A stretch of DNA of 64,000 bases from NCBI RefSeq assembly GCF_045037415.1, contig NZ_CP173440.1. The stretch is one strand, 5' to 3'. This document shows positions 3,001 to 6,000 of this stretch, piece by piece. Made by a program: the position numbers. This stretch comes from Escherichia coli (GTDB lineage Bacteria; Pseudomonadota; Gammaproteobacteria; Enterobacterales; Enterobacteriaceae). Positions within the stretch are counted from its first letter, which is position 1. Every line of letters begins with the position of its first letter.

Positions 3001-6000
3001 CGGGTCTCAACGTCGTGGAAAACTGGAACAGCGCCAATAATTTTATTTTTTATGGCGAACACGGAGAATTTACCAGCAACCGGCCTGCGGATCAGGAACT
3101 GTCGATGCTCTCTTTGCACCTGTTGCAAATCAGCCTGGTCTATATCAATACCCTGTTGATTCAAAATGTGCTGACAGAGCCGGCCTGGCAGCAGAGAATG
3201 ACAGAAGAAGACTGGCGTGGTCTGACCCCATTGATATACCACCATGTTAATCCGTATGGACGTATCGAGCTGAACATGGATCAACGGCTGGCGCTGGCAG
3301 CCTGATGGTGCCCAGAACCGTTCGGTTTCGTACACAGGGTCTTAATACTGTCCGAAAGTAAGTGAAATTACTTTCGGATATGCATTATGATTCGTACATC
3401 CTTTTCGGACGGAAATTTTCATCATGTCACGCGTTTTTGCCTACTGCCGTGTTTCTACACTGGAGCAGAACACGGAAAACCAGCGCAGGGAAATAGAAGC
3501 TGCTGGTTTTACCGTCAAATCCCAGAGACTGATTGAGGAGCACATCAGTGGTTCGGTTGCTGCCAGTGAGCGGCCTGGATTTACCCGTCTGCTCGACAGA
3601 ATGGAAAATGGTGACGTGCTGATTGTCACTAAACTGGATCGTCTTGGACGAAATGCTATGGACGTTAGGAAAACGGTGGAACAACTAGCAGCGTCCGGTA
3701 TTCGCGTACACTGTCTCGCGCTGGGCGGCGTGGACCTCACCAGCGCGGCCGGCAGGATGACCATGCAGGTGATTTCGGCCGTCGCTGAGTTTGAGAAAGA
3801 CCTGCTGATTGAGCGTACACATTCAGGGATTGCAAGAGCCAGGGCTTCGGGAAAACGCTTCGGGCGTCCTTCGTCACTCAATGGGGTACAGCAGCAGGTG
3901 GTGCTGGAACGTCTTAACGCTGGAGTAAGTATTGGTCTATTGCCCGTGAGTTTAGCACTACACGGCAGACCATTCTTCGCGTAAGGAAAGCAGCCGGAAA
4001 CGCGGATGCCGGGAACCTTTCTGGTGAAAAAATATCGTGAAACAGCGTCTGCTATCGAAACCTTAACCATGCATTGCAGGAAGAAAAGATTCCAGAGGAT
4101 TAATTTTGCTTTTAATGACTAACTTGATAAAAGGACATATATATTGATGGAAATTTCAACACAAAAACTGTCTGACGGCATCGTTCTGACGCTTCGCTCT
4201 CCCTCCGACAGTACAAAAAGCCCGGTGATCATTTTGTGCCATGGCTTCTGTGGTATCAGAGAAATTCTGCTACCTGATTTTGCTGAAGCATTTACCCGCG
4301 CCGGATTTTCCACCATCACGTTTGATTATCGTGGTTTCGGGGACAGTGACGGCGAACGCGGCCGCTTGGTTCCTGCTATGCAAATTGACGATATTATCTC
4401 TGTTGTTAACTGGGCAAGAGAACAGCCCTCCCTTGATGCGCAGCGTATTGGCCTGTGGGGAACATCATTTGGGGGATGCCACGTATTTGGTGCGGCGGTC
4501 AGAGACCCGGGAATCAAATGTATTGTCAGCCAGCTGGCTTTTGCAGACGGTGAAGAGATAGTCACCGGGAATATGAATAATGAAGAGAAAGAAGCTTTTC
4601 TTTCAACCCTGGACAAGATGGCTGAAAAGCAGAAGAACACAGGTAAAGAAATGTTCGTGGGTGTCAACCGGGTACTGAGCGATGCAGAATCAAAATCATT
4701 TTTCGAAGAAAACAGAACGCAGTACCCAAAGATGGACATTAAAATACCGTTTCTTACGGTGCGCGAAACTCTTCTGTACAAACCCGCATTGAATGCCTCA
4801 CAGGTGATGTGCCCGACCCTGATCGTTATTGCTGGTCAGGATACGGTTAATCCACCGGAGCAGGGACGGGCCTTATTTGACGCGGTGGGGGCCAAAGAAA
4901 AAAGGCTATATGAGGAAAGCAGTGCCCGCCATTACGACATTTATGCAGGAGAGCACTTTAAGCAGGTTATCAGCATTCAGACAGAATGGTTTAAAACGCA
5001 CCTGTAATTTTAGATAACGACTTACGGTGGGTTCAACAGAGCCCGCCGTTATGATAGACGTCAAATGTCGCATTTTGTAGCTTCGCTTCCGCTGGGCCCC
5101 ATAGGATCTGCCGGATCGTAGAGGCTGGCTCCCAGCGCCAGCTTCACGCCTCTGGACTGTAGTGCATCCGCTATCTCTCGTGCGTCAGGAACTGACCGCG
5201 CCAGCCGGTCAAGCTTGGGAACAGAACAACCAGCGTATCACCGCTGCGCACAGCGGCCAGCGCCTGATCAAGTCCGGGCCGTTGCCGGTTTGAGCCGGTC
5301 AGCCCTTTATCGAGGTAAATCCGGTCCGAAGATCTGGCATGCCTGTATTTGTCATTTTATTCAGCGCACGCACCATGGCCAAAGCCTCTGCAGCCTGACC
5401 ATCGTAATCACGCTACGCCAGCGAACCATCGAACAACTGCTTTACCCTGTACATCGGCGTTTCAGCTATCGACTGACGGTTGTAATCTGTTGTCCATTTC
5501 CACCGTGCATTGCTCCCGCTCAGTCGCTGATTCGCAACAGCACGATTGCGCTCTGCATACTCACCAGGCAAGAATCCCGCTCCCTTTCGGGGAGGAATGA
5601 GCGCGCTGATTTTCTTGCGAGGCAGTTCGTCATGACATCGCTGCGTATCGTAAGCGCCGTCCGCAGCAACTGACCTGATTTTTCGGTGGGTCTGCCGGAT
5701 AAGCCCCGGGGATGCTTCAGCATCCGTGACGTTGTTCAGTGACAGGTCCGCGCAGATGATTTCATGCCTACTCGCGTCAACAGTCAGATGCAGTTTCCGC
5801 CAGATACGACTGCGATCTTTGCCGTGCTTTTTGACTTTCCACTCACCTTCACCGAAGACTTTAAGCCCTGTGGAATCAATCACCAGATGCGAAATTTCAC
5901 CCCGGGTGGGCGTTTTGAAACTGACGTTAACCGACTTTGCCCGCTTGCTGACACTGGTGTAATCCGGACAGCGCAGCGGGACATCCATCAGGGCGAAAAT

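Follow-up and report, generated by a model that had tools for sequence, protein, structure and literature searches.

Genes and ends of the transposon

Near the start of the window (the whole 64-kb stretch of DNA that was analysed), positions 242–5098 are occupied by a Tn3-family transposon of 4,857 bp. From left to right, it consists of a left inverted repeat (IRL), tnpA, a res-like region (res), tnpR, a uilS-like lactonase gene, and a right inverted repeat (IRR). The coordinates of these features are listed in Table 1.

Table 1. Features of the transposon and of the tnpR lesion in the window.
Feature	Position	Strand	Description and basis
IRL	242..280	+	39 bp, GGCCTAGTGGGAGCGAAGCTGCAAAATGCGGCATCTGAC; three independent copies are homologous from exactly 242 onward
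tnpA	348..3305	+	Tn3-family DDE transposase, 985 aa, uninterrupted ORF; NF033527, PF01526, PF13700
res-like region upstream of tnpR	3318..3415		palindrome, YGTMCGAAA motifs, conserved blocks, promoter-like match
tnpR pseudogene, 5' reading frame	3424..3984	+	186 aa: 170 native residues, S171G, 15 out-of-frame residues, stop
tnpR lesion	3934..3937	+	A>G at 3934 and one G lost between 3936 and 3937; pairwise and four-way alignments with intact alleles
Displaced 3' part of tnpR, -1 frame	3937..4040	+	HTH helix 2, recognition helix, and C-terminal tail; TGA at 4038-4040
N-acyl-homoserine lactonase of the UilS family (alpha/beta hydrolase)	4147..5007	+	286 aa, intact; NF047920, RefSeq name uilS
IRR	5060..5098	-	39 bp; homology to other copies ends exactly at 5098

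We placed the boundaries by homology to the copies on pKPN165_1, on Kp52.145 plasmid II, and on a Salmonella plasmid. A generic search for inverted repeats on the pLVPK locus missed the repeats (its seed was probably too long), and the ends were set from the breakpoints of homology instead. The positions of the inverted repeats coincide with the breakpoints in four other copies, and IRL is identical to the reverse complement of 5060–5098 at 33 of 39 positions. The G at position 272 in IRL is a lineage-specific change that worsens the match between the two repeats. Both repeats start with GGCC; the inverted repeats of Tn3-family elements usually begin with GGGG.

Two features that are typical of the Tn3 family, a large (~1000 aa) DDE transposase and terminal inverted repeats of about 38 bp, are present. 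TnpA scores 1025.7 bits against NF033527 (transpos_Tn3; the cutoff is 500), with a match to profile positions 4–953 of 954. Similarly, the match to PF01526 covers profile positions 1–388 of 389, and PF13700 also matches. Compared with all other copies, the window's tnpA is longer by six in-frame nucleotides at 621–626 (CGACAC), which add His-Arg to an RHRHRQ stretch.

A copy of the transposon that is 93% identical lies on a 98.9-kb contig (Logan ERR3581185; L012), which is probably from Salmonella, given its flanking genes of the PipB2/PipA type. Its three genes are all intact (tnpA, 984 aa; tnpR, 205 aa; and the hydrolase, 287 aa), and its TnpA is 95% identical from end to end to TnpA in the window. 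Immediately outside both inverted repeats of L012 is a 5-bp direct repeat, ATACT. Because such a repeat is the signature of Tn3-family transposition, it confirms the boundaries of the transposon. The window copy has no 5-bp target-site duplication (the flanks are TTTTG versus CCATA), and a duplication is likewise absent from the copy on pKPN165_1. Since L012 has the duplication and the window copy does not, this trait holds for the element and was lost at this copy.

The passenger gene scores 524.9 bits against NF047920 (the cutoff is 400) and lies inside the transposon in every copy that we examined. In Serratia marcescens, UilS has been described as a factor in virulence and fitness (PMC11633161), in a paper that mentions neither Klebsiella nor transposons. 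The UilS-type lactonase gene of the virulence plasmid of hypervirulent K. pneumoniae is a passenger of a Tn3-family transposon.

The left end of the transposon interrupts a cupin gene. The annotated cupin coding sequence (WP_004210220.1; 125–334, with its stop at 332–334) crosses into IRL at 242, and its last ~31 residues are encoded by the transposon, which suggests that insertion of the transposon cut the cupin gene short. Immediately outside IRR, there is part of another, minus-strand serine recombinase gene (about 5099–5322; “frameshifted; incomplete” in RefSeq) and then an IS903-like element of the IS5 family (together, region 5099–6390), whose transposase is annotated with an internal stop. 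Far from the transposon, at 52614–53186 and 54638–55075, the window has two other serine recombinase genes. One of these, an ORF of 190 aa, is intact and has a C-terminal HTH, and the other (145 aa) lacks its 5' end; between them is a 464-aa ORF without an assigned function.

The resolvase gene is split between two reading frames

In the 186-aa ORF from the window, the Pfam search found only the catalytic domain of a serine recombinase (PF00239 at residues 4–144, E = 1.4e-38), and HTH_7 (PF02796) was absent. In the intact allele, HTH_7 is found at residues 147–187 besides the catalytic domain. The copy on pKPN165_1 (CP089858.1), which is 99.2% identical at the DNA level, has one extra G and is annotated with an intact 205-aa “recombinase family protein.” The extra G is also present in Kp52.145 plasmid II (L004) and in the Salmonella plasmid (L005), which have about 99% DNA identity and also encode 205 amino acids. 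As L004 and L005 are independent copies that have the G, the state in the window is derived. In the local alignment, ATTAGTGCTATT in the intact allele corresponds to ATTGGT-CTATT in the window, and the A>G substitution at 3934, which leads to S171G, is directly beside the deleted G. A second non-synonymous change that is specific to the window's lineage is E155V, at 3887.

The rest of the gene persists in another frame. When we compared the intact protein to the window with tblastn, residues 172–205 matched 3936–4037 at 97%. The frame that starts at 3426 carries HTH helices 2 and 3 up to the stop codon at 4038–4040, and it is open from about 3918, which means that it overlaps the end of the 0-frame ORF. 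The tnpR product of the window is without native residues 172–205.

A first-pass annotation of this DNA had claimed that the C-terminal HTH of the resolvase was out of frame, and the two frames (the ORF at 3424–3984 versus the frame that ends at 4038–4040), together with the missing PF02796, bear this out. It had assigned the HTH to the +1 frame, which is incorrect: the offset from the ORF is +2 (equivalently, -1). It had also proposed a 1-nt deletion near 3948. The size of the deletion was right, but its position was not, as the missing G is at 3936/3937, about 11 nt upstream, though still inside the range that it gave. Alignment to intact resolvases, which it had recommended as a check, shows that the intact alleles differ by exactly one G at the lesion; and because these 99%-identical alleles with the extra G have HTH_7, we agree with its view that the deletion removed the DNA-binding domain and left the catalytic domain.

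A full-length alignment of the intact protein is obtained with gamma-delta resolvase, Tn3 resolvase, and Gin (E = 1e-25 to 1e-27), in which its YCRVST motif, with the catalytic serine, falls at the nucleophile region of these proteins. In the alignment, residue 171 of TnpR pairs with residue 162 of gamma-delta resolvase, which we take to be the start of the second HTH helix in the 1GDT structure. Judging from this alignment, the predicted product of the window gene extends through the catalytic domain, E-helix, GRP arm, and HTH helix 1 but is without HTH helix 2, recognition helix, or C-terminal tail. As a small serine recombinase, then, it has the catalytic domain with its serine nucleophile and lacks an in-frame C-terminal HTH_7. 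Because helices 2–3 of HTH_7 are in the -1 frame, we consider the gene to be a pseudogene of the small serine recombinase family.

To survey homologues, we took the best 120 matches to the 186-aa ORF from a collection of 5.8 billion proteins. Homologues with the same C-terminus would have spoken against a lesion, as the first-pass annotation pointed out, but among these 120 matches, the aberrant tail is covered only by P0001 (186 aa) and P0002 (179 aa, partial), which are the same allele. Nearly all of the remaining matches (116 of 118) are 191–227 amino acids long and have PF02796, and the two exceptions (P0006 and P0076) have their own, unrelated disruptions. Close and distant homologues read GVSISAIAREF(S/N)TTRQTILRV in a single frame. 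Since the homologues all have this motif in one frame, the out-of-frame HTH of the window is not a chance feature.

The predicted cointegrate-resolution module of the element combines a conserved res-like region with a frameshifted resolvase gene. The region has a perfect 11-nt palindrome (3351–3361 / 3368–3378), and all three of the window's matches to the half-site-like motif YGTMCGAAA are within 3326–3411. A putative sigma-70-like promoter at 3362–3391 is a match to the consensus only. Related resolvase genes in plasmids from E. coli, Yersinia, and Erwinia are preceded by conserved blocks of the res-like sequence. The relatives at 72–78% DNA identity, whose use was limited to the protein and res alignments, are plasmid resolvases that stand alone: none has an annotated Tn3-family transposase gene as a neighbour.

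The locus is labeled “recombinase family protein; frameshifted” by RefSeq/PGAP. Its status as a pseudogene is already on the public record, and it is an ordinary feature in a relic transposon. We did not find a published name or description for the tnpR lesion or for the element in the literature.

The frameshift is inherited with pLVPK-type virulence plasmids

The 841 bases around the lesion are 100% identical to pLVPK (NC_005249) and pK2044 (NC_006625), and 599 plasmids in PLSDB match this region at 99% identity or above. Across all of the records that match the lesion region, the host is Klebsiella for 569 of 635. Based on these sequence matches and on the mainly Klebsiella hosts, the window is part of a K. 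pneumoniae virulence plasmid of the pLVPK/pK2044 type.

We searched PLSDB with a 40-mer that is centred on the lesion and was designed so that every 28-mer seed spans the lesion. The exact frameshift 40-mer is present in 576 plasmid records, with pLVPK and pK2044 among them, and as these are largely one plasmid lineage, they show inheritance and not independent recurrence or selection. The hosts of the 576 are Klebsiella (543), E. coli (32), and Enterobacter (1). The corresponding intact 41-mer is in 16 PLSDB records (14 from Klebsiella and 2 from Salmonella). Among 15 of these plasmids, 14 are conjugative (about 154–186 kb), and one, Kp52.145 plasmid II (122 kb), is mobilizable. Intermediate alleles, with either the substitution only or the deletion only, had zero matches in PLSDB.

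The frameshift allele is also found in 21 E. coli plasmids in RefSeq, and among the 10 matches listed, most are from conjugation assays or laboratory recipient strains. No plasmid has a second copy of the frameshift allele (there are 576 places in the 576 PLSDB records). Because there is no plasmid with two copies, we see no trace of transposition by the element or of unresolved cointegrates.

Other copies of the transposon have different disruptions. The copies at L002:1826-6676, L004:2335-7185, and L005:2335-7184 have an intact tnpR, and every one of them has a 1-nt deletion in tnpA. In window-equivalent coordinates, the Klebsiella copies have this deletion at 2467 and the Salmonella copy has its own at 1442; in the Salmonella copy, the lactonase gene has a 1-nt deletion as well (window-equivalent 4471). 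Among the copies compared, L012 is the only one in which all three genes are intact.

Consequences of the lesion and alternative explanations

We are highly confident that the window contains a genuine, vertically inherited tnpR frameshift pseudogene in a 4.86-kb Tn3-family transposon on plasmids of the pLVPK/pK2044 type. The deletion at 3936/3937, with the adjacent A>G substitution, shifts the reading frame at residue 172. In the resolvases of gamma-delta and Tn3, the C-terminal domain provides site recognition, as is established by biochemistry. A truncated TnpR would thus be expected to be unable to recognise the subsites of res, and it is a sound inference from the known resolvases that cointegrates formed by the element would not be resolved by its own resolvase. 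The truncated protein would also be unable to repress the promoter that appears to be embedded in res, so autoregulation would be lost. Although tnpA, the inverted repeats, and res are structurally complete in appearance, this copy seems to behave as a fixed relic, because it has no target duplication and no plasmid has two copies of the frameshift allele. The truncated protein might still be made, with residual or altered function.

Even if tnpR is a pseudogene, a related resolvase might act on res in trans, so that resolution persists in practice. Resolvases that are 80–96% identical to TnpR, with conserved res-like sequence upstream, are common on other enterobacterial plasmids. Cointegrates can also be separated, slowly, by RecA-dependent recombination, which would be an alternative route. 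Complementation in trans would, however, hinge on a co-resident plasmid being there by chance. Within the 64-kb window, the other serine recombinases are only 35–37% identical to TnpR (and, as mentioned above, one is 5'-truncated), so at the level of sequence, cross-recognition of res by them is unlikely. Overall, we view continued resolution in trans as improbable, but with enough of a chance to be kept in mind.

We give far less credence to the idea of a selected function for the truncated protein or for the loss of TnpR binding, whether by derepression of the lactonase promoter or by stabilisation of cointegrates and plasmid fusions. The promoter-like site in the res-like region would fit with this idea, as would the lack of any terminator-like site between tnpR and the lactonase gene, the intact tnpA beside a broken tnpR, and the fixation of the allele in a very successful plasmid lineage. 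But in a plasmid lineage that is near-clonal, hitch-hiking alone would be enough to fix the allele. Also, in the sister lineages, tnpA or the lactonase gene has been inactivated just as much by 1-nt deletions, a pattern that points to the neutral decay of an idle element. Finally, unresolved cointegrates formed by the element are not seen (all 576 of the 576 records have a single frameshift copy), and the window copy is without a target duplication. Similarly, it seems very unlikely that the change is non-neutral, in that lost TnpR binding raises the expression of the lactonase (with a possible quorum-quenching advantage in hypervirulent K. pneumoniae) or that transposition amounts to a stable fusion of replicons.

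Two other explanations can be set aside almost entirely. Single-base indels are the commonest assembly error, and the first-pass annotation had allowed for one, so the actual plasmid could have an intact tnpR; but the lesion lies outside any homopolymer, the deletion always occurs together with the substitution at 3934 and never in single-change form, PGAP makes the frameshifted call, and the finding of the identical 40-mer in 576 independently deposited records, including pLVPK and pK2044, excludes a read error in practice (agreement among this many assemblies stands in for read support of the deletion). Programmed -1 ribosomal frameshifting or transcriptional slippage could restore a full-length resolvase, given that about 3918–4040 is open in the HTH frame and that slipping back by one base before about 3937 would yield a near-native protein; but there is no homopolymer run of four or more and no in-frame -1 slippery heptamer (X XXY YYZ) in 3900–3990, and a single reading frame encodes the protein in all relatives, the 99%-identical alleles included, so recoding is not a trait of the family and the deletion is derived and recent, which leaves recoding with hardly any likelihood.

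If this copy is an inherited frameshift pseudogene, as we believe, and if its tnpA is still active, then transposition would lead to cointegrates that the element cannot resolve, which is a conceivable route to plasmid fusion, although no plasmid with two copies was found. Otherwise, the finding matters little: it documents a further decaying mobile element on a plasmid that has been studied heavily, and RefSeq already calls the gene a pseudogene. The added value is modest and descriptive: the analysis fixes the boundaries of the element, identifies its intact reference copies, and pinpoints the lesion.

Comparison with known systems

The intact allele of tnpR is a full-length match to the resolvases of gamma-delta (Tn1000) and Tn3 (PDB 1GDT, 2GM4, and 5CY1), with E of about 1e-25. 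As in those proteins, a catalytic domain with its serine nucleophile is followed by an E-helix, an arm, and a C-terminal three-helix HTH, and as in those systems, tnpR is directly downstream of a res-like region with a promoter-like site. In contrast to the gamma-delta and Tn3 resolvases, the window copy goes out of frame where HTH helix 2 begins; the intact form, at 205 amino acids, has an extra C-terminal tail of ~17 residues. The gene order also differs from that of Tn3. In Tn3, tnpA and tnpR are divergent, whereas here tnpA, res, and tnpR follow each other on one strand.

The element also resembles ISYps3 from plasmid pGDT4 of Yersinia pseudotuberculosis (PMC3297565), which has a Tn3-family DDE transposase, a serine resolvase, inverted repeats of 34–39 bp, and a passenger gene. 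Prokka annotation names the ORFs after ISYps3 and ISNpu13. We considered whether the element is ISYps3 itself and rejected this: at 4.86 kb rather than 7.3 kb, without the IS110-family insert, and with a UilS-family lactonase as the passenger, it is a related but different transposon.

Fusions between virulence plasmids and KPC plasmids (pVir/pKPC) have been called “Tn3-mediated” (PMC10714771). Because no plasmid has two copies of the frameshift allele, it is unlikely that this element was behind those fusions.

On pLVPK-like plasmids, RefSeq/PGAP shows the same pseudogene between a “Tn3 family transposase” and a “UilS family quorum-quenching N-acyl-homoserine lactonase.” That annotation is without the boundaries of the transposon, the exact lesion, the intact alleles, and the reciprocal frameshifts in tnpA, all of which are defined in the present analysis.
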